Part shown: positions 2,645 through 63,998 of the stretch, in pieces
How the letters are laid out: each line of letters begins with the position of its first letter
How positions within the stretch are numbered: the stretch's first letter is position 1
Assembly: GCA_038065655.1 (NCBI GenBank)
Contig: JBBTQO010000001.1
Span: 2,517-66,516 of the forward strand
Reading direction: 5' to 3'
Source: Patescibacteria group bacterium
GTDB lineage: Bacteria > Patescibacteriota > Minisyncoccia > Phycocordibacterales > WO2-35-19
DNA: 64,000 bases
Program-made: the position numbers and the translations under genes
Notes under the pieces: generated by a model
What the model was told of the DNA's origin: nothing
Seen by the model: only the letters and a program-made list of their open reading frames with translations
Database searches by the model: none

Positions 2645-2661
2645 CAGAAGGTGCCTTTCTG
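2645..2661. repeat. REP-like hairpin (family 1) upstream of RAYT: cagaagg-tgc-ctttctg
   Basis: 7-bp stem (one mismatch), 3-nt loop, 29 bp upstream of RAYT start; same motif at 2848-2864 and 3352-3368. Confidence 0.6.
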
Positions 2662-2689
2662 CAATTTACAATATATATAGAATAGGGGA

Positions 2690-3349
2690 ATGAGAAATAG
2701 AGATTATAAAATTTTTGCTCCAGATAGTTATTATCACGTATTTAATCGTGGAAATGCCAAAATGAAAATTTTTCTAGACCAGGAAGATTACAGATTTTTT
2801 CTTTGGCGTTTAAAAGAAAACTTATTTCCTGAACAAGTTGAAAAAAACAGAAGGGCACCTTCTGCAAATCTCCCAAAAGAAAGATATGTTCGCAAACTTC
2901 TACCGCCCAATTCGTTCAGTTTGATATGCTATTGTCTTATGCCGAATCATTTTCATCTTTTAATTAGGCAAAATTCTAAAATAAAAATAAGCGAACTAAT
3001 GCTTCGTGTTTGTGGTAGTTATGCAAAGTATTTTAATAAAAAATATGATCGTGTTGGGTCACTTTTTCAAGATCAATTCAAGGCTACTTTGGTAAACAAA
3101 AATAATTATTTGCTTTGGTTATCTGCGTATATACACGAAAATCCTCGAAAAGGAAAACTGGTAGATGAATTGGGGGATTGGGAATGGAGTAGTTACCTGG
3201 ATTATACGAGTCAAAAGCAAGGTGGTTTCTGTGAAAAGGAAATAATACTGGATCAATTAAACTCTAATGGTTACAAGGCATTCGTTAATCAGAATTTTGG
3301 TAAAAAAAGAGCTATAGAATTAAATGCTTTTCTTTTAGATTTTGAATAG
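2690..3349 (+). CDS. REP-associated tyrosine transposase (RAYT; IS200/IS605-like Y1 transposase, COG1943-type)
   Basis: 219 aa; N-terminal YHVFNRGN motif and HuH motif LMPNHFHLLI, typical of Y1 transposases; flanked on both sides by the same hairpin repeat. Confidence 0.8.
   Translation: MRNRDYKIFAPDSYYHVFNRGNAKMKIFLDQEDYRFFLWRLKENLFPEQVEKNRRAPSANLPKERYVRKLLPPNSFSLICYCLMPNHFHLLIRQNSKIKISELMLRVCGSYAKYFNKKYDRVGSLFQDQFKATLVNKNNYLLWLSAYIHENPRKGKLVDELGDWEWSSYLDYTSQKQGGFCEKEIILDQLNSNGYKAFVNQNFGKKRAIELNAFLLDFE
2848..2864. repeat. REP-like hairpin (family 1) copy inside the RAYT coding sequence: cagaagg-gca-ccttctg
   Basis: Perfect 7-bp stem with 3-nt loop; encodes in-frame residues (..NRRAPSANL..) of the RAYT itself. 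Confidence 0.6.
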
Positions 3350-3351
3350 TA

Positions 3352-3368
3352 CAGAAGGTGCCCTTCTG
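3352..3368. repeat. REP-like hairpin (family 1) downstream of RAYT: cagaagg-tgc-ccttctg
   Basis: Perfect 7-bp stem, 3-nt loop, begins 3 nt after the RAYT stop codon. Confidence 0.6.
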
Positions 3369-10249: not shown

Positions 10250-10261
10250 ATAAAATATTAT

Positions 10262-10315
10262 ATTAGACGCTGAGCGTTTAGTATAGTTATTTTATAAAAA
10301 TATTGTGTAATAATT
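10262..10315. repeat. Intergenic motif containing hairpin gacgc-tga-gcgtc followed by tattgtgtaataat; second copy at 29073-29130
   Basis: ttagacgctgagcgtttagtatagtt...tattgtgtaataatt here versus ttagacgctgagcgtttcgtatagtt...tgttgtgtaattttaataatt at 29073-29130. Confidence 0.4.
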
Positions 10316-10321
10316 TGTTTG

Positions 10322-10392
10322 TGCGGGTAGGGGGAATCGAACCCCCGTCTCAACCTTGGGAAGGTCGCATCATACCACTAAACTATACCCGC
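10322..10392 (-). tRNA. tRNA-Gly (anticodon CCC)
   Basis: Minus-strand GCGGGTATAGTTTAGTGGTATGATGCGACCTTCCCAAGGTTGAGACGGGGGTTCGATTCCCCCTACCCGCA; acceptor stem GCGGGTA/TACCCGC; canonical T-arm GGTTCGATTCC; anticodon stem CGACC/GGTTG with loop TTCCCAA; CCA not encoded. Confidence 0.8.
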
Positions 10393-10659
10393 ATTGTTTT
10401 CTAAATAATTTTGGATTCTTTTATTTAAATACCCCCTACCAAAACCTGTTTTTAGTTGGAGCTCTCTTTTTCTGGAATCTGTTTTGTCCATACACGCTTC
10501 ATAGTAGACCAGTGTAATTCTATCAAATTTTTTTGTTGTTTGGACCTCACCTAATTTATGTTCCTTTAATCTATTGCGCAAATCACTTGTTGAGCCTATA
10601 TAAAAATTGTTTGCTCTTGTTTTCAAATTTTCACAATGTAGTACGTAAGTATAAAACAT
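10378..10659 (-). CDS. GIY-YIG family nuclease (small standalone Slx1/YhbQ-like or homing-endonuclease-like)
   Basis: ORF 10378-10755; likely start at MFYTYVLHC (10659). GIY-YIG signature: YTYVL..FYIGST.DL..RL.EH, conserved R and E (KRELQLK). C-terminal codons A-G-I-V-stop are read from the first 15 nt of the tRNA-Gly gene. Confidence 0.75.
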   Translation of the reverse strand: MFYTYVLHCENLKTRANNFYIGSTSDLRNRLKEHKLGEVQTTKKFDRITLVYYEACMDKTDSRKRELQLKTGFGRGYLNKRIQNYLENNAGIV

Positions 10660-10740
10660 ATTATTGCTTGCCCGCCAAAAGGTCTGCGAGACCATTTGGG
10701 CGGGTCCGTCTAAATGTTCGCAAAGCGAACTTTTGACGGA

Positions 10741-10774
10741 GGAAGGTCGCATCATACCACTAAACTATACCCGC
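10741..10774 (-). repeat. 34-nt duplicated copy of the tRNA-Gly 5' half (positions 1-34); direct repeat with 10359-10392
   Basis: Exact match GCGGGTATAGTTTAGTGGTATGATGCGACCTTCC then divergence. Supplies the last four codons (AGIV) and the stop of cysS. Lacks the T-arm and 3' half, so not a functional tRNA. Confidence 0.8.
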
Positions 10775-15283: not shown

Positions 15284-15724
15284 ATGCAAGATGACAAAAA
15301 AATAGAAGAATATATAGAAGAAGAGGATTTTGAGAATAAAGGGGGTAGGGGATGGAAAGGAAAATTTATAGATTTTATTGGGGGAAAATATTTTGTGCCA
15401 ATTACTATCGTTTTAGTAGCTATAATAGCTTTTTCTTTAGGGAGAATCTCGGGATTACAGGAAAAAAGGGAGCCGGTGAGGGTTTTAAATAACACAGTTT
15501 CTGTGGAAAACCCAACATCCAATGTTGGGCAAACGGCAGCGGTTGGTGCAAGTAATGCTAGTGGAGGATCAGTGGTGGCGTCAAAAAATGGTACTAAATA
15601 TCATTATCCTTGGTGTGCCGGCGCTAAACAAATATCAGCCAAAAATTTGGTTACTTTTGATTCTATTGAAAAAGCTCGCACCGCTGGCTACACTCCAGCT
15701 AGTAATTGTAAGGGACTCAAATAA
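15284..15724 (+). CDS. Membrane-anchored protein with C-terminal Ada-like metal-binding domain
   Basis: 146 aa; TM helix (ITIVLVAIIAFSLG); C-terminal KYHYPWCAGAKQISAKNLVTFDSIEKARTAGYTPASNC resembles the Zn-binding N-terminal domain of Ada (..CRPSC...NV.F.S...A...GFRPC..). Confidence 0.4.
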   Translation: MQDDKKIEEYIEEEDFENKGGRGWKGKFIDFIGGKYFVPITIVLVAIIAFSLGRISGLQEKREPVRVLNNTVSVENPTSNVGQTAAVGASNASGGSVVASKNGTKYHYPWCAGAKQISAKNLVTFDSIEKARTAGYTPASNCKGLK

Positions 15725-16077: not shown

Positions 16078-16554
16078 TTGGGGTTTATAATGATAGCTTC
16101 AAATATTACTGGTTTTGGTGGGGCATCGTTTGTGCCAAACACCTTACCACCAGAAGTTATAAAAATTAAAGAAACTCTTCCAAGTGACAATAAAAAAATT
16201 GTAACTAAGAAGAATATAACCGTCGAAGAGTATGTGAGAAATTATTTCTCAGACATACCAGTTTTGGTTGAAATCGCTAGATGCGAATCTCGTTTTCGTC
16301 AACATGATAAAGAGGGAGGAGTTTTGCGTGGTGAAGAGAATAATCTTGATCGTGGAGTTATGCAGATCAATGAATACTATCACAACGAAAATTCTGACAA
16401 ACTTGGATATGACATCCTTACTCTAGAAGGGAACACCGCCTACGCTAGACACCTTTTTGAAAAGTATGGTGTCAAGCCTTGGAAGTCCTCTATCAGGTGT
16501 TGGGGGGGGACTGTTGCCTACTCTGAATATAAAGACCTGGCGGTTAACAAGTAA
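16078..16554 (+). CDS. Lytic transglycosylase-like (SLT/lysozyme-like domain) protein
   Basis: 158 aa; IARCESRFRQ (candidate catalytic Glu-Ser), GVMQINEYYH, AYARHLFEKYG motifs reminiscent of SLT-domain transglycosylases. Confidence 0.5.
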   Translation: MGFIMIASNITGFGGASFVPNTLPPEVIKIKETLPSDNKKIVTKKNITVEEYVRNYFSDIPVLVEIARCESRFRQHDKEGGVLRGEENNLDRGVMQINEYYHNENSDKLGYDILTLEGNTAYARHLFEKYGVKPWKSSIRCWGGTVAYSEYKDLAVNK

Positions 16555-16571: not shown

Positions 16572-16600
16572 TAGCTCCTCCAAACGGGGGAGCTGTTTTT
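16572..16600 (+). terminator. Rho-independent terminator after the transglycosylase-like gene
   Basis: agctcc-tccaaacggg-ggagct hairpin followed by TTTTTC. Confidence 0.5.
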
Positions 16601-16668
16601 CTTAGTAAAAGCCAAAGGGCACCTTCTGGGACCGGGGCATTCTGAAGGTGCCCTTTGGCTTTTACTAA
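16600..16668. repeat. 26-bp perfect inverted repeat (REP family-1 doublet) with 17-nt spacer
   Basis: cttagtaaaagccaaagggcaccttc / gaaggtgccctttggcttttactaag; arms contain the gggcaccttctg core of the RAYT-associated hairpin at 2645-3368. Confidence 0.7.
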
Positions 16669-16776
16669 GAGATGGTAGGAACGTCGCACAATATATCTTC
16701 GCGACTCAACCAAAGGTTGGGTCGCGAAAGATAACGCCCATTTTTAGAATAAAATAATTATATTAAAAATATTCCC

Positions 16777-17064: not shown

Positions 17065-18363
17065 TTAAAAGTATAACATAGGGTCTAAGTAAGCATTGAT
17101 ACCTGATACCGGGATACTTACATTTTTACAATTAATACTAGAAGAATATTTTTGGATTTGAACTCCTTGACTAGCGTAAAGAGTAAGATGAAGATGAGGT
17201 CCGGTTGAATAGCCAGTTTGGCCGCTGTAACCAATCACCTCTCCGGTTACAACTTTTTGGCCAGCTACTACCTTAATTAAATCAAGATGACCGTAAAGAG
17301 TTGATAAACCATTTGGATGCTCTACTAAAACCCATTTACCATATGAATAGCACCCTTTTTGTTCGTCTGTGTTGCCGGTGCCAATTACGGTTCCATTAAG
17401 AGCTGCTTTAACTGGAGTGCCACGACTCGCTCTAAAATCAATTCCATTGTGAGTACCTGATGTGTAGAGGCGTTTAGCATCAATTGTTTTACCAAAATAT
17501 TGAGTGATAAAGACATTGTCCAATGGCCACGAAAGGATACCTTTACCAGAAGAAGGATAGCTATTTGGGTCAATGGCTCTTTTGAGTTGAGATTCAAATA
17601 AGAAAAGTTCTTTCTCAAATCTCTCCTTTTCCGCTTGCCTATCGGTTAACATTTTTTTGTATTCCGTCTCTTTATTTTTGGTAGTGGTTAACAGAGTACT
17701 TTTTTCTTTTTTATTTACATCTAAAATTTTGTTTTGGTCACCAAGCTCTGATTTAAAAAAAACTAATTTGTTTTTTTCTGTTTCGCTGACAGCTTTTTTA
17801 TTAAATAATTCATTTCTATAAATTTCAAGCTCTTTTGATTGGGCCCTTACTTTTTGCTGAAATTGGCCGATTGATTCATATTCATCTAAAACATCAGCTA
17901 AACTCTTGTTGGTTAAAAAACTTTCAATAAGTGATTCATCATCTTTTTGTCGCATATCGCCTAGAATTTTTGAGATAGCTAAAACATTAGATTCTATTTT
18001 TTTTTCCATGTCCCCTATTTCGCTACCGAGATTTTTAATGGTCAGGTTAGTTTTTTGGATATTAGTTTCGGTTTTCTTTATTTCTGTACCAATTTTTTGT
18101 TTGTTGATGTCAAGAACTTTTATAGCATTCTGTAGAGTTTTAGTCTCTCCGCCAACAACCTCAATTTGTTTTTCATAAACTTTTATTTCTGCGTCAAGTT
18201 GTTTAATTTTATCATTGTGACCTTCGATATTTTGTTTTATTTGGTCTACCGATTGAGCATTAGCATAATATCCTATGATAATAATAAATCCGATAAGTCC
18301 CACAAGACAAATTTGACTTATAAGTTTAATGTGGTTTATTTTTTTAAAGTGTTTGTATGGCAT
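17065..18363 (-). CDS. M23 family metallopeptidase with N-terminal coiled-coil (EnvC-like murein hydrolase/activator)
   Basis: 432 aa; TM anchor; ~250 aa coiled-coil; C-terminal M23 motifs HNGIDFRASRGTPV and GYSGQTGYSTGPHLHLTLY. Confidence 0.8.
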   Translation of the reverse strand: MPYKHFKKINHIKLISQICLVGLIGFIIIIGYYANAQSVDQIKQNIEGHNDKIKQLDAEIKVYEKQIEVVGGETKTLQNAIKVLDINKQKIGTEIKKTETNIQKTNLTIKNLGSEIGDMEKKIESNVLAISKILGDMRQKDDESLIESFLTNKSLADVLDEYESIGQFQQKVRAQSKELEIYRNELFNKKAVSETEKNKLVFFKSELGDQNKILDVNKKEKSTLLTTTKNKETEYKKMLTDRQAEKERFEKELFLFESQLKRAIDPNSYPSSGKGILSWPLDNVFITQYFGKTIDAKRLYTSGTHNGIDFRASRGTPVKAALNGTVIGTGNTDEQKGCYSYGKWVLVEHPNGLSTLYGHLDLIKVVAGQKVVTGEVIGYSGQTGYSTGPHLHLTLYASQGVQIQKYSSSINCKNVSIPVSGINAYLDPMLYF

Positions 18364-29036: not shown

Positions 29037-29140
29037 ACTTAAAAGATAGCAAAAATTCTCTCACCTGTCTCTAGACATCTTTATTAGACGCTGAGCGTTT
29101 CGTATAGTTTTTTTGAGAAAATGTTGTGTAATTTTAATAA

Positions 29141-30805
29141 TTACAAAAACAAGCGGACGAGGCGAAGATCGTCGTAGGAGTATTTTGGACCCAAGAGTTC
29201 TTTGACTGAGACCAGTTTATATCTTTCGCCTTCACTGACGCCGACTTTGTGAAAAGCGCTCCAAATTTCCTTGAATTTATTTTTAGTAATATCATCTCGC
29301 AAGTTGTAAATATTGTATTCCGGGTTGGCTTCTTTTATTTGTTCTATATGATATAAAATAGTACCAAGTTTCAATCCCCTTTTTTGAGCGATATCTTTTG
29401 TATTTAATCCCTCATCTAGCATTTTTCGAGTTTCGCCCACGGTGTCTAATTTCTTCTCTTTTATTTTTGTGCCTCTTATTTTATCAGCGAACTCACGGTG
29501 CATTTTTGAAAGCTTCTCATCACCCATTGTTCTAATGTGAAAAGAATTGGTCTTGGAAAAATCTCTAAATTTATTATCAAATTCTAATACTTCTTCATTG
29601 ACTCGAAGAGCCATATCGTTGATACCCTTTAGGAAAAGTCCTTCCAGCGAACGGACGCGTGAGAGGGCGACGTAGCCCATACCCTTTTCAAAAGAATTGG
29701 ATAAGTCAACCAAGGCGGTATCAAGAGACATTCCTTGGCTTTTATGGACAGTAATGGCCCATGCTAGCCGCAGGGGGTACTGATTTATCTCGGCTTTGCT
29801 TTTGCCTTCTTCTTCAATACGCCATGTTTCTCTTTCTACATCAATAACATTGCCTGAAAGGGTTTTGACTCTTATTTCTTCAAAGCCGCATTTGATAATA
29901 GTGCCCAAAGTGCCATTAACATAATCGGCCTCAAAATTATTTTTGACAAACATTACTTTGGCTCCCACCTTTAATCGGAGTGTCTCTGGTGCTAAGCAAC
30001 TTTTTTTCAAGGATTCTACTAAATGGCGCTTACCCCTTTCTTGCATTTCATATTCAGAAATTTTGCCTGGGATTTTTATTAACTCTGCTTCATTTTCCGC
30101 GTCAACATCCCTGTTGTGAGAATAAAGTTTAGTTGATTCAAACTCAGCCTTTTTATTAAACCGACTTCTTAAAATATCTACAATTTTATCTGAGACTGAA
30201 TTTTCTCTAATGGCATTTAATATTTTCAAATACTCCATATCACTTTGACGATGCTGTTCGGAAAGATAGCAAACTTTTAAATTAAGGTCCTTCCAAGCTT
30301 TTGAATGATAGGCAAAAAATACCTCTGGCTCTTGAGCCCTTCTAATTGGTGGTAGTTGGAAAAAATCACCACAAAAAACAACTTGTATGCCTCCAAACGG
30401 GTCAGTTGAATTTTTAACTTCTTTTATTATTTTTTCTATCAAATCAAGCCGAAAATGATGGAGCATCGATATTTCGTCGATGATGAGGACGGAGGCGTTT
30501 TTTATTTTACTTCTTATATGCTTTTTTTCGGCGATTTCGGCTATATCGCTTTTACTCAAGCTGTCTTTGATGCCAATTCCGCTCCAAGAGTGGATGGTTA
30601 CGCCACCCATATGAGTGGCTGCAATGCCTGTGGAAGCCGTAATTCCCGCATCAGCACCTAGTTCTTTTAAATACTCTATATATTGCCTTAAAACATAGGT
30701 TTTGCCACTACCGGCGGCGCCAGTCAAAAATACATTTCGGCCGGTTTTTAAAATGTCCAAAGCTTCTTTTTGAGTCATAGCTGGCATTTTAGCAGACTTT
30801 TTCAC
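29141..30805 (-). CDS. PIF1/RecD-like superfamily 1 ATP-dependent DNA helicase with C-terminal HTH
   Basis: 554 aa; Walker A GAAGSGKT, DEISM (Walker B), QG/motif V, C-terminal helix-turn-helix-like region. Confidence 0.7.
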   Translation of the reverse strand: MKKSAKMPAMTQKEALDILKTGRNVFLTGAAGSGKTYVLRQYIEYLKELGADAGITASTGIAATHMGGVTIHSWSGIGIKDSLSKSDIAEIAEKKHIRSKIKNASVLIIDEISMLHHFRLDLIEKIIKEVKNSTDPFGGIQVVFCGDFFQLPPIRRAQEPEVFFAYHSKAWKDLNLKVCYLSEQHRQSDMEYLKILNAIRENSVSDKIVDILRSRFNKKAEFESTKLYSHNRDVDAENEAELIKIPGKISEYEMQERGKRHLVESLKKSCLAPETLRLKVGAKVMFVKNNFEADYVNGTLGTIIKCGFEEIRVKTLSGNVIDVERETWRIEEEGKSKAEINQYPLRLAWAITVHKSQGMSLDTALVDLSNSFEKGMGYVALSRVRSLEGLFLKGINDMALRVNEEVLEFDNKFRDFSKTNSFHIRTMGDEKLSKMHREFADKIRGTKIKEKKLDTVGETRKMLDEGLNTKDIAQKRGLKLGTILYHIEQIKEANPEYNIYNLRDDITKNKFKEIWSAFHKVGVSEGERYKLVSVKELLGPKYSYDDLRLVRLFL

Positions 30806-54908: not shown

Positions 54909-54951
54909 CCACTCTTTGCATTTTGTGCAACAAATATGTGGAAAAATAAAA

Positions 54952-55692
54952 TTAGTCGGTTAAATTGTTCCCAACGTCGGACGTTTGGATATCAAAATTG
55001 TTGGGGTTAAGCGATAACCATTCAAATATTTCTTTTTTTAATATTTTTGGATCTACGAAATATTCTGGAAAATCTTTTTTAGACAAAATTTCTTTTTCCA
55101 TTCTATTTTTCCCACAGTAATCTTGATAACTACTCCACCCATAATCTTCTAAAAACTTTTTTGCCTTTTCTATATCTTTGATACCATTTTCTTTCCACAT
55201 TGGATCAATAAGTTTTACTGGATTTAGATGAATGTAAGAAAAAATGTATTTTGAGTATGGATCAGTGTCTACATAAGAACCTTTAAAATTAGTTTCAAAA
55301 AGTCCACCAGTACGTTTATATTTTGTATTGAAATATTTTGAATAAGAAGTGCAAAGTTTTTTCATAAAAAGACTTATTCCGTTCCTTTTGTGTTTCTCAC
55401 TAATGTTGGACGTTTGTTCAGGGGAAATAGTTATGAGGAGATGAAAATGATTTGGCATGAGGACCCATGCACCGATTGAAACAATTGGTTTTCCTCTGTC
55501 AAATTCCCAAACATCTATTTTTCTTCTAACTATGTCCTCTCTAAAGTTAATATATTTTTTTGAGTTAGAGAGATATAGCATTTTTACAAATCTTTTTCTA
55601 TCATAATCATCAAGAAAAATATTTTGTTTACTATTTCCTCTATTATAGAGATGGTAAAACTCACCTTCTACAAAAGGTTCTTTTCTTTGCAT
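54952..55692 (-). CDS. Second REP-associated tyrosine transposase (RAYT; IS200-like Y1 transposase), distinct family from the one at 2690
   Basis: 246 aa; YHLYNRGN and HuH motif LMPNHFHLLITI; flanked by direct copies of cccaa(c/t)gtcggacgtttggatat (54962-54984 within its 3' end; 55713-55736 upstream of the start). Confidence 0.8.
   Translation of the reverse strand: MQRKEPFVEGEFYHLYNRGNSKQNIFLDDYDRKRFVKMLYLSNSKKYINFREDIVRRKIDVWEFDRGKPIVSIGAWVLMPNHFHLLITISPEQTSNISEKHKRNGISLFMKKLCTSYSKYFNTKYKRTGGLFETNFKGSYVDTDPYSKYIFSYIHLNPVKLIDPMWKENGIKDIEKAKKFLEDYGWSSYQDYCGKNRMEKEILSKKDFPEYFVDPKILKKEIFEWLSLNPNNFDIQTSDVGNNLTD
54962..54984. repeat. REP family-2 element (cccaacgtcggacgtttggatat) overlapping the RAYT-2 C-terminal codons
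   Basis: Near-palindromic core aacgtc-g-gacgtt; same sequence at 55713-55736; inverted doublet at 63598-63643. Confidence 0.6.
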
Positions 55693-55712
55693 ATAAATAT
55701 TTTAACACACTT

Positions 55713-55736
55713 CCCAATGTCGGACGTTTGGATATG
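55713..55736. repeat. REP family-2 element (cccaatgtcggacgtttggatatg) between alaS stop and RAYT-2 start
   Basis: Direct repeat of the 54962-54984 copy, 21 bp upstream of the RAYT-2 start codon. Confidence 0.6.
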
Positions 55737-55737
55737 A

Positions 55738-57486
55738 TTATTCCAAAACTGCTTTGATGCGGCGGACGCCGAGAGAGACTGCTTCTTCTTTCAAAATTTT
55801 AAATTTACCGAGATCCTTTGTGTTAGAAATGTGGGGACCGCCGCAAAATTCCTTGGACCAAGCGGTCTCTAGCGAATCACCAACAAAGTAAATAGAAACT
55901 TCATTACCGTACTTATCACCAAAAGCGTGGACGGCGCCAGTTTTTTCGGCATCAATTTTTTTCATTACAATTTTATTGACCGGCAGATTTTCTGAAATTT
56001 TTTGGTTAACTAAATCTTCAACTTTTTGTTTTTCTTCATCTGTCATTTTGCGGCCAAAACCAAAATCAAAACGCAATCGCTCACTATTGATGTTGCTCCC
56101 CTTCTGCCTGATAGGTTCACCCAAAATAATTTCAAGAGCTTGGCGTAAAAGATGAGTAGTAGTATGAAGTTTTTTTGTTTCTTCTCCCGCATCCGATAGT
56201 CCGCCCTTAAACATACCAGCGCTGGAAGTACGTGAAAGTTCTTGATGTTTTTTTAATTCTTCATTAAATTTATTCTCATCAATTTCCTCTCCTTTTTCTT
56301 TAGCTAATTCCTTGGTGAGCTCTAGTGGAAAACCATAAGAAGTGAAAAGAGTGAATGGATCTACTCCCTTTTCAAATTCTTTCAAACCATTTTCCAAAGT
56401 TTTTTCAAATTTTTCTTCTTCTTGAGATAAATTAGATAAAACAAAATCTTTATTTTTGTTTAATTCCGGATAAACATCTTTATATATTTCTATTACAACC
56501 TCGGCAATTTCTTTGGTGAAAGATTTGAGACCAAGCTGTTTGCCGTATCTTACTGCGCGTCTAATCAATCGGCGCAAAACATAACCTTGGCCCGTATTGG
56601 CTGGAGCAATCCCCTTTTCATCACCTAAAATAAAAGCAGAAGCTTTTAAATGATCGGCGATAATACGCATAGCTCTCACATTTTGACCCCCATATTTTTT
56701 ACCAGAGAGTTTTTCTATTTTTTGCATAATAGGCCAGAAAAGTTCTGTTTTATAATTATCATCCAATCCGTTCATTACCGCCAAAGTTCTTTCCAGGCCC
56801 ATTCCGGTGTCTACATTTTGTTGGGTTAGAGGTTCAAATTTGCCACCAGATGTTTTGTTATATTGCATAAAAACATCATTCCAGATTTCCAACCATTGGG
56901 GGTTATCATCATTAAAACTCTTAGGTACTTCTTTTGGATCTCCTACCCAATAAAACATTTCGGTGTCGGGTCCACATGGTCCTGTTTTCCCCGCTGGCCC
57001 CCACCAATTATTTTTTTTGGACAATTTAGCTATTCTTTTTTCTGGAATTCCCAGAGATTTCCATTTTTCAAATGCTTCCTCATCAAAAGGAGCATCATCA
57101 TCTCCTTGGAAAACTGAAACAGCAAGTCTGTTTTTATCAAGGTCGAGCCACTCCTTTGAGGTTAAAAATTCAAAACTCCACTCAATGGCTTCTTCTTTAA
57201 AATAATCTCCGAGCGACCAATTGCCGAGCATTTCAAAAAAAGTGTGATGACTACCATCCCCGACTTCATCTATATCTCCGGTCCTAATGCATTTCTGAAC
57301 ATCAGCAAGTCTATTTCCGGAAGGATGTTTTTCGCCTAAAAGATAAGGAACAAGTGGATGCATACCTGCGGTAGTAAAAAGTACTGACGGATCGTTTTCG
57401 GGCACTAAAGAAGAGCTCGGGATTATTTTATGCCCTTTCCCTTCAAAAAACTCTAAATATTTTTTTCTGATTTCTGCCGGGGTCAT
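55738..57486 (-). CDS. alaS: Alanine--tRNA ligase, short form lacking the C-terminal C-Ala domain
   Basis: 582 aa versus ~870 in typical bacteria; N-terminal catalytic motifs (..FTTAGMHPLVPYL..), editing-domain HxxxH and C (..TTHLLRQAL.., ..FCGGPH..). Confidence 0.85.
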   Translation of the reverse strand: MTPAEIRKKYLEFFEGKGHKIIPSSSLVPENDPSVLFTTAGMHPLVPYLLGEKHPSGNRLADVQKCIRTGDIDEVGDGSHHTFFEMLGNWSLGDYFKEEAIEWSFEFLTSKEWLDLDKNRLAVSVFQGDDDAPFDEEAFEKWKSLGIPEKRIAKLSKKNNWWGPAGKTGPCGPDTEMFYWVGDPKEVPKSFNDDNPQWLEIWNDVFMQYNKTSGGKFEPLTQQNVDTGMGLERTLAVMNGLDDNYKTELFWPIMQKIEKLSGKKYGGQNVRAMRIIADHLKASAFILGDEKGIAPANTGQGYVLRRLIRRAVRYGKQLGLKSFTKEIAEVVIEIYKDVYPELNKNKDFVLSNLSQEEEKFEKTLENGLKEFEKGVDPFTLFTSYGFPLELTKELAKEKGEEIDENKFNEELKKHQELSRTSSAGMFKGGLSDAGEETKKLHTTTHLLRQALEIILGEPIRQKGSNINSERLRFDFGFGRKMTDEEKQKVEDLVNQKISENLPVNKIVMKKIDAEKTGAVHAFGDKYGNEVSIYFVGDSLETAWSKEFCGGPHISNTKDLGKFKILKEEAVSLGVRRIKAVLE

Positions 57487-62924: not shown

Positions 62925-63998
62925 TTAATCTATTATACCACCCCCCAAACAAATTTCACCATCATATAAAACCAAAGATTGACCGGGAGAGATGCCTATT
63001 TGAGGTTGGTCAAAAATGACTCTTGTTTGCCCGTCCTTGATTTGAATTTTGCATTTTATTTTTTCTTGACGGTATCGGATGCGACAAGATAAATTTTTGT
63101 TTGGGATTTTTCCGATTAAATTTATATCCTTGATAGAAATTTCTTGGGACAAATTTGACGACCGTCCAAAATGTCGTAACTCTTGTTTTGAACTTACTGT
63201 TATCAAGTTTTTTTCAACATTTTTAGCAATTACATACAAAGGCACTTCGCTCTCTGTTTTTTGGGTAATGGTAAAGCCGTGGCGTTCGCCGATAGTGAAA
63301 AAGAGAGCACCGTTGTGGTGGCCGATTATTTCCCCATCCAGATCTAAAACGTCACCTCTTTTTTGAGGAATATATCTGGCCAAAAATTCTTTCATATTAA
63401 TTTTGCCCAAAAAGCAAAGCCCTTGGCTATCCTTCCTTGTTTCTTGTGGCAGGCCAAATTTACCTGCAAGTTTTCGAACTTCTGATTTTTGCAGATGGCC
63501 GATAGGAAAAAGAATGTGTTTAAGTTGTTCTTGGGTTAAGGTCCAGAGGAAGTATGATTGGTCTTTGTTTTTATCAATACCTTCAAGAAGCTGATTTCCC
63601 AATGTCCGACGTTTGCAACGGTTCCCAACGTCGGACATTGGGGGCATTCTTGCATAGTGTCCGGTAGCTACAAAATCAGCGCCATTTTTTAAAGCAAATT
63701 TTAGAAAGTGGCCAAACTTTATTTCTTTATTGCACATCACGTCTGGATTGGGAGTCCGCCCTTGCCTGTATTCATCAATCATATAATCAACCACTTCTTT
63801 TTTATATTCTTTTTCTAAATCAAGAGTGATGAAAGGAATATTTAAAATCGCGGCCACCTTCATGGCGCTCCGCCTATCTTCCTTCCAACTGCAAGGATAA
63901 CCTTCTGGTGTCCAAGCCTTAATAAAAACTCCAGTCACATCATAGCCATCTTTTTGCAACAAAGTTACTGAAACAGCGCTATCTACTCCGCCCGACAA
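62925..63998 (-). CDS. mnmA: tRNA-specific 2-thiouridylase MnmA (5' end runs off the window), carrying an in-frame REP family-2 doublet
   Basis: PP-loop SGGVDSAV, ..GHYAR.., NKDQSYFL, C-terminal domain. The ORF-finder start is a TTG; the true start is likely beyond coordinate 64000. The insert MPPMSDVGNRCKRRTLGN is encoded by the palindromic repeat at 63598-63643. Confidence 0.85.
   Translation of the reverse strand: MSGGVDSAVSVTLLQKDGYDVTGVFIKAWTPEGYPCSWKEDRRSAMKVAAILNIPFITLDLEKEYKKEVVDYMIDEYRQGRTPNPDVMCNKEIKFGHFLKFALKNGADFVATGHYARMPPMSDVGNRCKRRTLGNQLLEGIDKNKDQSYFLWTLTQEQLKHILFPIGHLQKSEVRKLAGKFGLPQETRKDSQGLCFLGKINMKEFLARYIPQKRGDVLDLDGEIIGHHNGALFFTIGERHGFTITQKTESEVPLYVIAKNVEKNLITVSSKQELRHFGRSSNLSQEISIKDINLIGKIPNKNLSCRIRYRQEKIKCKIQIKDGQTRVIFDQPQIGISPGQSLVLYDGEICLGGGIID
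63598..63643. repeat. REP family-2 inverted doublet (perfect 16-bp arms cccaatgtccgacgtt / aacgtcggacattggg) inserted in-frame in mnmA
   Basis: Arms are exact reverse complements separated by tgcaacggttccc; 48 nt total, a multiple of 3, in a variable loop of MnmA between GHYAR and NKDQSYFL. Confidence 0.7.

Follow-up and report, generated by a model that had tools for sequence, protein, structure and literature searches.

The closest described counterparts of the locus analysed here are the REP-associated tyrosine transposases (RAYTs, TnpA_REP) and their repetitive extragenic palindromes (REPs), which also occur as hairpin-forming REP doublets (REPINs) and bacterial interspersed mosaic elements (BIMEs); examples are E. 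coli YafM (PDB 4ER8) and the Pseudomonas groups 2 and 3. Previous work has described RAYT/REP pairs, genomes with several such pairs, RAYT groups of low copy number and REPs lying in frame within genes (PMC2817692, PMC3116915, PMC5581495, PMC3733652), as well as vertically inherited, domesticated RAYTs (PMC5581495, PMC3333891). We analysed a 64-kb stretch of a Patescibacteria group bacterium (contig JBBTQO010000001.1; hereafter the window) for a RAYT-like gene, RAYT2, and a palindromic repeat, REP2, that lies before, within and at the end of that gene (Table 1). We conclude that RAYT2/REP2 is a real RAYT/REP pair but not a textbook member of the class, because inverted flanks, a GTAG tag, high copy number and scores above the curated cut-offs are all lacking. 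By analogy with characterised enzymes, RAYT2 is probably a domesticated RAYT-type nuclease-transferase of Patescibacteria acting on single-stranded DNA (ssDNA), and the 19- to 23-nt palindrome its cognate REP.

Like the TnpA_REP systems, RAYT2/REP2 combines an HUH/Y1 fold, with one Tyr in Y-I-H-x-N-P-V-K, and a single gene that is inherited vertically at a fixed chromosomal locus. Short palindromes flank the gene and are also found elsewhere, including as inverted doublets, and a genome holds several RAYT paralogs with their own repeat families (PMC2817692, PMC3333891, PMC3116915, PMC5581495). Unlike 4ER8, to which it is only ~13% identical, RAYT2 has ~80 extra C-terminal residues and falls under the curated RAYT cut-off. 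Unlike classical REPs, REP2 is low-copy and has neither a GTAG tag nor a fixed inverted orientation. Unlike the TnpA_REP systems described in the literature searched, the pair has a cognate repeat in frame within the RAYT open reading frame (ORF), with another inside its final codons or overlapping them. RAYT groups 1, 4 and 5, which have a housekeeping-like distribution and flanking 16-mers present 12-31 times per replicon (Bertels et al. 2017, PMC5581495), are similar in being RAYT-like genes with moderately repeated flanks. They were, however, defined on Proteobacteria, Cyanobacteria and others and on extragenic flanks only, so that Patescibacteria and in-ORF copies lie outside their scope. 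Finally, intragenic REPs and Rickettsia palindromic elements (RPEs) place palindromes or dimers in frame in loops of conserved proteins of compact genomes, adding 6-30 residues (Di Nocera et al. 2013, PMC3733652). There, as in mnmA here, different palindromes occupy the same site in orthologs. The CGTC-type REPs and RPEs have no dedicated transposase, whereas REP2 is tied to a specific RAYT, whose gene is one of its hosts.

What kind of enzyme is RAYT2? The HUH motif of its translation is H82-F83-H84 (55441-55449), and the catalytic Tyr153 (55234-55236) lies within SYIHLNPVK. These residues were invariant or nearly so in an alignment of 46 homologs, and the full-length RAYT2 keeps every invariant residue of the family. 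A database search returned 5324 homologs, and all named ones came from Patescibacteria/Parcubacteria, labelled transposase or RayT. Pfam Y1_Tnp (PF01797) is carried by several close RAYT2 homologs and by RAYT1 homologs (see below). The sole NCBIfam family match of RAYT2 was REP_Tyr_transpos (NF047646), covering profile positions 46-133 of 146. Searched singly against PDB sequences, RAYT2 gave a weak match to 4er8 (E 0.71), and a profile of the 46 homologs matched only 4er8, E. coli TnpA_REP, at E 0.035 with the HUH motif and the SYIHLNPVK Tyr aligned. Because these sequence searches of the PDB yielded only weak matches to 4er8, we resorted to structure prediction. The AlphaFold2 model had a predicted local distance difference test score (pLDDT) of 82.8 and a predicted template modelling score of 0.83. 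Its top Foldseek match was 4er8_A, a RAYT with its REP hairpin, at a moderate E of 2.9e-6 and a template modelling score of 0.60 on the target. The TnpA proteins of IS608, ISDra2 and IS200 ranked after it (E 5e-4 or weaker), while the Foldseek probability was 1.00 for 4er8, 2a6m, 2xm3 and 2f4f alike. The model fell below a pLDDT of 50 only at residues 95-98, a loop, and at residues 234-246, a C-terminal tail predicted to be disordered; these are the stretches encoded by the internal and 3' REP2 copies. The fold, the catalytic motifs and more than 5000 homologs support RAYT2 as a Y1/HUH enzyme of RAYT type, and both the Foldseek ranking of the model and the PDB profile search place it nearer to TnpA_REP than to the TnpA of IS200/IS605.

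A first-pass annotation of the window had described this gene as a second Y1 transposase, recognised by YHLYNRGN and LMPNHFHLL and bracketed by direct repeats. Both motifs are in the translation, and the repeats are as described: CCCAAYGTCGGACGTTTGGATAT is present exactly twice in the window, at 54970-54992 and 55713-55735, both on the plus strand and 22/23 identical. There were no CCCAAYGTCGGACGTTTGGATAT matches in 100 dinucleotide-preserving shuffles. The 13-nt core with at most one mismatch matched 5 times in the window against 0.10 expected, and on these two counts we rejected a chance origin of the copies. The annotation was also right that the core, AACGTC-G-GACGTT, is palindromic and that the 3' copy forms part of the C-terminal codons of the transposase, where it encodes the peptide given in Table 1. 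The identity of the flanking copies extends 4 nt past the palindrome. As ssDNA, the 3' copy folds weakly (-5.6 kcal/mol, z -1.6).

To compare the upstream region with the 3' end of the gene across relatives, we fetched 80 metagenome loci with homologs 50-81% identical to RAYT2. We screened 55 of them for shared palindromes and used the 43 with a defined palindrome for position counts. The repeat of the window was absent from the closest relatives (L001-L005), where it had been expected, and other palindromes stood at the equivalent positions. L001-L004 derive from Hainich groundwater. It was these unexpected palindromes that led to the finding that hairpin and gene covary. Most of the 55 screened loci carried one locus-specific palindrome of 17-25 nt at both gene ends; examples are CCCAACGTCSGACGTTGGG, CCCGAAGTCSGACTTCGGG, CCCGACATCCAATGTAGGG, TGCGGAAGTCSGACTTCCGCA, TCCTAAGGTGNCACCTTAGGA, CCCCAAGGGTSACCCTTGGGG and CTAGGTCTTGCCTAG. 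Upstream copies, present in 42/43 loci, start between -68 and -24 nt, with a median of -45. Of the 3' copies, found in 40/43 loci, 11 lie within the ORF, 12 span the stop codon and 17 are downstream of it. In 28/43 loci, an internal copy, in frame and perfectly matching the palindrome of that locus, follows the HUH motif at +262 to +292 nt. In the protein alignment it appears as a variable insert directly after the HUH strand, and the inserted peptide is the C-terminal tail of the same protein: PKPGLGVV in L143, LPKSDFG in L157, LRKSDF in L152 and PRSHLG in L142. L128, L143 and L152 are among the loci whose hairpins are perfect. Matching internal copies to flanks gave a mean score of 20.7 within a locus and 8.2 between loci, and the own flank was the best match for the internal copy in 27/32 loci. 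Could selection on the peptides themselves, of the ..TSDVG.. kind, have produced this pattern? We rejected this possibility: the peptides are wholly different between genomes, while the DNA remains a perfect palindrome with the very sequence of the non-coding upstream copy.

Both the type of hairpin and whether a locus has an internal copy agree with the RAYT phylogeny on a rough neighbour-joining tree. The basal CTAGGTCTTGCCTAG clade lacks the internal copy, its sister clade has it throughout, and the TCCTAAGG subclade has lost it in a single event. From the sequences compared, this pattern fits one old internal insertion that has changed in step with the flanking copies ever since and has thereby stayed identical to them. 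The syntenic ortholog group, which holds three hairpin types with compensatory stem changes at the same codon positions, caught such changes midway. Type A, CCAAACGTCSGACGTTGGG, is found in the window, L128 and L129; type B, CCCGAAGTCSGACTTCGGG, in L124 and L132; and type C, CCCKACATCCRATGTMGGG, in L125, L127 and L131. Some loci mix the types: in L124, both the upstream and the internal copy are type B and a type-A relic remains in the last codons; L129 joins type A at the upstream and internal sites to type B at the 3' end; and in L127 an internal type-C copy is paired with a type-B one at the 3' end. Since the flanking codons are conserved, the hairpin cores have been replaced in place; such replacement requires copy-and-paste or conversion and not independent point mutation. 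No fixed orientation rule held for the three copies, which, judged by the asymmetric loop base, are direct or inverted among orthologs, and some hairpins are fully symmetric. The direct orientation claimed in the annotation is thus correct for the window and does not hold as a general trait.

The annotation had further called the second RAYT unrelated to the first and proposed that two different RAYT/REP pairs coexist in this genome, each specific for its own hairpin. Two pairs are indeed present: RAYT1 is flanked by CAGAAGGnnnCCTTCTG and RAYT2 by REP2. Specificity has indirect but strong support, at the level of sequence comparison, from the covariation of hairpin and enzyme in relatives. The description as unrelated was mistaken, as RAYT1 and RAYT2 are 35% identical (E 2e-28); by sequence, they are paralogs, and their hairpins share one architecture. 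The in-ORF hairpin of RAYT1 lies at a different site, before and not after the HUH strand, and inserts of the R-R/G-A-P type are frequent at that site in RAYT1 homologs. An internal copy or doublet matched the flanks in 3/4 fetched loci of the RAYT1 clade (L204, L206 and L207). In the fourth, L205, the internal palindrome was unlike the flanks, so the layout rule is not universal. Because the RAYT1 pair behaves alike at a different in-ORF site, we conclude that the in-ORF cognate hairpin originated at least twice, in the RAYT2 and RAYT1 clades.

A further arrangement of REP1 units was seen at 16600-16670, where two units form a perfect 27-bp inverted repeat (-31.5 kcal/mol, z -11.6). It is intergenic, between the convergent ORFs 16078-16554 and 17065-18363. 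We regard it as a REPIN-like REP1 doublet, possibly serving as a bidirectional terminator.

Is RAYT2 a mobile element? Relatives with 74-81% RAYT identity share the order alaS, RAYT, an ORF of 460-475 aa and infA-rpsM-rpsK-rpsD-rpoA-rplQ, and mnmA lies a few kilobases upstream in their RAYT locus too. Against syntenic orthologs, RAYT2 had a ratio of nonsynonymous to synonymous substitution rates (dN/dS) of 0.04-0.14, with dS of at least 1. The window contained no near-identical duplicate of RAYT2, its sole other family member being RAYT1, and none of the fetched loci held a second copy of the RAYT and hairpin unit. With synteny kept, dN/dS low and duplicates absent, we conclude that RAYT2 is a domesticated, vertically inherited gene under long-term purifying selection, unlike an insertion sequence.

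These data bear directly on the alternative that RAYT2 is an autonomous insertion sequence of the IS200/IS605 type, with the direct hairpins as its left and right ends (LE and RE) and the whole unit mobile. The families share an enzyme superfamily and have subterminal hairpins on either side of tnpA (as in IS608, ISDra2 and IS200); in IS200, a hairpin lies close to the gene start. The same-strand hairpins at both ends of RAYT2 resemble the LE/RE layout, the TnpA proteins of IS608, ISDra2 and IS200 are significant fold matches too, and the repeat is low-copy in the genome. However, IS200/IS605 elements are multi-copy, mobile and strand-specific units with defined LE and RE, whereas RAYT2 has been immobile over long periods, its chromosomal position being shared by relatives with saturated synonymous sites. 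Its hairpins are symmetric, and some lie within the ORF, one at the 3' end and a third in the middle. Moreover, the orientation of the copies varies among orthologs, a RAYT and not an insertion-sequence enzyme is the best structural match, and lone hairpins and doublets exist without the gene. Hence, we consider this explanation very improbable.

Two further observations concern the neighbourhood of the gene. In the syntenic group (L001 and L005 against the window), AlaS identity ranged from 44% to 85%, while the adjacent RAYT was 76-81% and RpsM 83-94% identical, which suggests that alaS was replaced, or diverged very unevenly, in some lineages. L177 has a second, divergent RAYT paralog (1989-2612; 45% identity with RAYT2), which is encoded on the other strand some 2 kb away from the first; several RAYT paralogs per genome seem common in these bacteria.

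REP2 is not confined to its gene. While the two flanking copies named by the annotation stand, it had overlooked the internal in-frame copy, a doublet in mnmA and a variant copy in ORF 15284-15724; the repeat is therefore not limited to the flanks of RAYT2. The two units of the mnmA doublet (63598-63616 and 63624-63642) form a perfect 16-bp stem with a 10-nt spacer (-20.7 kcal/mol, z -6.2). They sit between the conserved ATGHYAR and LLEGxDKNKDQSYF blocks, so that the protein reads ..HYAR-MPPMSDVGNRCKRRTLGNQ-LLEG... The variant copy, CCCAACATCCAATGTTGGG, is the sequence type of the orthologous RAYT loci L125, L127 and L131. In total, the window holds 5 recognisable REP2 copies and 1 decayed copy in 64 kb, three of them not linked to the gene, and every dispersed copy seen there is within an ORF.

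Similar in-frame palindromes were seen in relatives. In Candidatus Zambryskibacteria RIFOXYC1_FULL_39_10 (MHWW01000009.1; L079:4789-4807), a REP2-type hairpin lies in frame inside valS, encoding ..ENTGSLQTSDVGSLTEKDQ.., and uses the same frame (QTSDVG) as the RAYT2 tail in the window. A hotspot of in-frame palindromes is the MnmA loop that separates ATGHYAR from LLEGxDKNKDQSYF, where inserts measure 13 to 41 aa. Relatives have another family there, CCTCTCCT-n-AGGAGAGG, with a single copy each in L127 and L005 and two copies in L131. The palindrome of L005 has a perfect 13-bp stem; the window has the REP2 doublet there instead.

We also scanned 185,579 species genomes for the degenerate pattern CCCAAYGTCSGACRTTKG. 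Among the matches listed, most were in unrelated phyla, notably Vicinamibacterales. The perfect palindrome CCCAACGTCSGACGTTGGG is repeated many times over in several metagenome-assembled genomes of Vicinamibacterales (Acidobacteriota), including L016, L021, L030, L032, L039, L040 and others, and contig CBDCCO010000007.1 alone has at least 12 matches. This abundant, REP-like family of near-identical sequence apparently has no relation to REP2 or arose convergently.

The position of the upstream copy raises the question of whether the hairpins are ordinary host cis-elements, serving as promoter or operator, terminator or mRNA-stability element, with covariation reflecting regulatory co-evolution only and no enzyme acting on them. 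A TAnnnT hexamer ends 6-7 nt before the ATG in ~40/49 homologous loci, 27 of them with an upstream TG. In the window, the same geometry was found at 15/44 ORFs and a Shine-Dalgarno-like sequence at only 1/44 ORF starts. Given that scarcity of Shine-Dalgarno-like motifs, leaderless-type promoters seem common, and the data suggest that leaderless or Shine-Dalgarno-independent initiation is widespread in this genome. The upstream REP2 copy starts next to the alaS stop and extends over the -35/spacer region of the putative promoter, whose -10 element is consistently placed; the hairpin of one clade itself reads TTGCSN-N17-TAnnnT; and many loci have their 3' copy across the stop codon. All this would suit host cis-elements. 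Yet no T-tract follows the hairpins, and the same sequence occurs in frame in the unrelated genes mnmA, ORF 15284-15724 and valS. In addition, the closest solved relative of the enzyme was crystallised with exactly such a hairpin, and two paralogous enzymes in one genome each have a different one. That the hairpins are host elements and nothing more is thus quite improbable.

Regulatory and substrate roles are nevertheless mutually compatible. Through promoter overlap, and through the in-ORF and stop-codon copies in the mRNA, the hairpins could plausibly self-limit RAYT expression, by analogy with other hairpins: IS200 limits its expression via hairpins near its start, and REPs near stop codons are said to lower translation in E. 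coli. Separately, an intrinsic terminator of alaS was considered for the upstream copy and rejected, as there is no T-tract and a terminator scan was negative at the site.

Several observations weigh against RAYT2/REP2 being a RAYT/REP pair of the classical kind. Scores were low against both curated profiles: 41.3 bits for NF047646 (cut-off 80, E 1.4e-10) and 20.9 bits for PF01797, narrowly short of the cut-off of 23. The Y1_Tnp match, by which the first-pass annotation had proposed to test the ORF, had an E value of 4e-4. The flanking copies in the window are direct, and not inverted as in the original definition of RAYTs (PMC2817692). No GTAG or CGTC tag was conserved outside the stem across the loci, and CGTC/CTAC was seen only within some stems (compare PMC3733652, PMC3333891). 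Relatives had just 24 hairpin copies off the gene in ~690 kb, far below the hundreds of classical REPs; the repeat, REP family 2 of the annotation, is low-copy and unlike a classical, abundant REP family. Lastly, the copies of the window are imperfect: the upstream copy has one stem mismatch and folds no better than shuffles, and the internal copy has 4 mismatches over the 19-nt pattern and has lost its hairpin.

Might RAYT2/REP2 then be a decaying relic here, its gene intact by inertia and its hairpins neither maintained nor mobilised? The state of the upstream and internal copies is what a relic would show, and so is the scarcity of further copies in the 64 kb, a single doublet and a single variant. 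However, the ORF is full length with all invariant residues, including HUH and Tyr, and dN/dS against orthologs is ~0.1. Furthermore, the perfect 16-bp stem of the mnmA doublet suggests a recent origin, and the flanking copies are still 22/23 identical, including the 4 nt past the palindrome. We therefore judge a relic improbable. Because the three gene-linked copies are partly decayed, the pair of this genome may be less active than those of its relatives.

How would a domesticated RAYT with a cognate REP produce these patterns? By analogy with E. coli TnpA_REP and IS608 TnpA (PMC3333891, PMC3479197), RAYT2 would recognise the folded hairpin on ssDNA, cut next to it by forming a 5'-phosphotyrosine with Tyr153 while His82 and His84 hold a metal, and rejoin the strands. 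Occasionally, REPs or doublets would be copied to new sites such as mnmA and ORF 15284-15724. The gene-linked copies would be overwritten repeatedly, and enzyme and hairpins would co-evolve as a pair; candidate routes of homogenisation are RAYT-mediated exchange, gene conversion and repeated re-insertion. In-ORF copies could persist because they encode disordered surface segments, the post-HUH loop and the C-terminal tail, in stop-free frames. The copy over the promoter, together with the mRNA hairpins in the ORF and at the stop codon, could damp expression.

Going further, the promoter, in-ORF and stop-codon copies might be more than tolerated passengers: as functional cis-sites, they would let the RAYT sense its own gene or act on it. 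They could work by autoregulation, through binding of promoter or mRNA hairpins, or by reversible self-inactivation, through cutting and rejoining between hairpins. We hold this to be rather unlikely. If true, it would account for the perfect match of the intragenic hairpin to the flanks ever since a single ancestral insertion, in lineages where synonymous divergence is saturated, and for the independent origin of one layout in two RAYT clades.

In the literature searched, which was not exhaustive, we found nothing relevant on RAYT/REP systems in candidate phyla radiation (CPR)/Patescibacteria bacteria or on REPs inside RAYT ORFs. Not found described there are the large Patescibacteria RAYT family, the cognate hairpin in the ORF and in the last codons, and its concerted evolution with the promoter-proximal copy. 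The matching of RAYTs to REPs, and the movement and overwriting of REPs in vivo, have so far been inferred largely from Pseudomonas and E. coli. The Patescibacteria loci offer a compact natural experiment: the genomes are tiny with few repeats, 2-3 copies stand at fixed, alignable positions with one constrained by a reading frame, and many lineages show joint switches of enzyme and hairpin, intermediates included. Three subjects thereby become directly testable: how enzyme and hairpin co-evolve, how dispersed repeats evolve in concert, and a possible self-regulation by a domesticated transposase. In gene-dense CPR genomes, such repeats become short disordered inserts in essential proteins (MnmA, ValS), which is relevant to annotating CPR-specific insertions.

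Table 1. Coordinates of the RAYT genes, their hairpins and related features (positions refer to the window unless a locus is named).
Feature	Position	Strand	Description
RAYT2	54952-55692	minus	246-aa HUH/Y1 RAYT-type transposase ORF; from profiles, motifs and AlphaFold2 model
3' REP2 copy	54970-54992	minus	inside last RAYT2 codons, ..QTSDVGN.., ..NFDIQTSDVGNNLTD*
Decayed internal REP2 copy	55399-55417	minus	in frame right after HUH strand, peptide ..EQTSNIS..
Putative extended -10 element	55699-55707	minus	TGtTAAAAT; ends 6 nt before RAYT2 ATG, leaderless-type geometry; predicted from sequence
Upstream REP2 copy	55713-55735	minus (CCCAATGTCGGACGTTTGGATAT on plus strand)	2 nt past alaS stop, 21-43 nt before RAYT2 ATG
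REPIN-like inverted REP2 doublet	63595-63642		in frame in mnmA variable loop
Variant REP2-family hairpin	15511-15529		CCCAACATCCAATGTTGGG; perfect 8-bp stem, in frame in ORF 15284-15724, ..ENPTSNVGQ..
MnmA-loop regions compared	window 63595-63642; L005:1342-1500; L127:2927-3040; L131:2403-2580; L129:383-530		
RAYT1 pair	2645-3368	plus	ORF 2690-3349 with own hairpin CAGAAGGnnnCCTTCTG
REP1 upstream copy	2645-2661	plus	position -45 from RAYT1
REP1 internal copy	2848-2864	plus	in RAYT1 frame, ..NRRAPSA.., before HUH strand
REP1 3' copy	3352-3368	plus	3 nt past RAYT1 stop

Two other repeats were noted in the window. The first 34 nt of a minus-strand tRNA-Gly(CCC), its 5' part (10359-10392), are repeated exactly 382 nt away at 10741-10774, and the pair (regions 10321-10392 and 10741-10774) brackets a small ORF, 10378-10755. 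This looks like the footprint of a duplication or insertion at the tRNA gene. A 51-nt repeat, 88% identical between 10261-10311 and 29082-29132, includes the palindrome AGACGCTGAGCGTTT and, after it, AT-rich sequence. One copy adjoins tRNA-Gly, and ORF 29141-30805 lies downstream of the other. Either a third hairpin family or a promoter or terminator common to both sites may be represented here.

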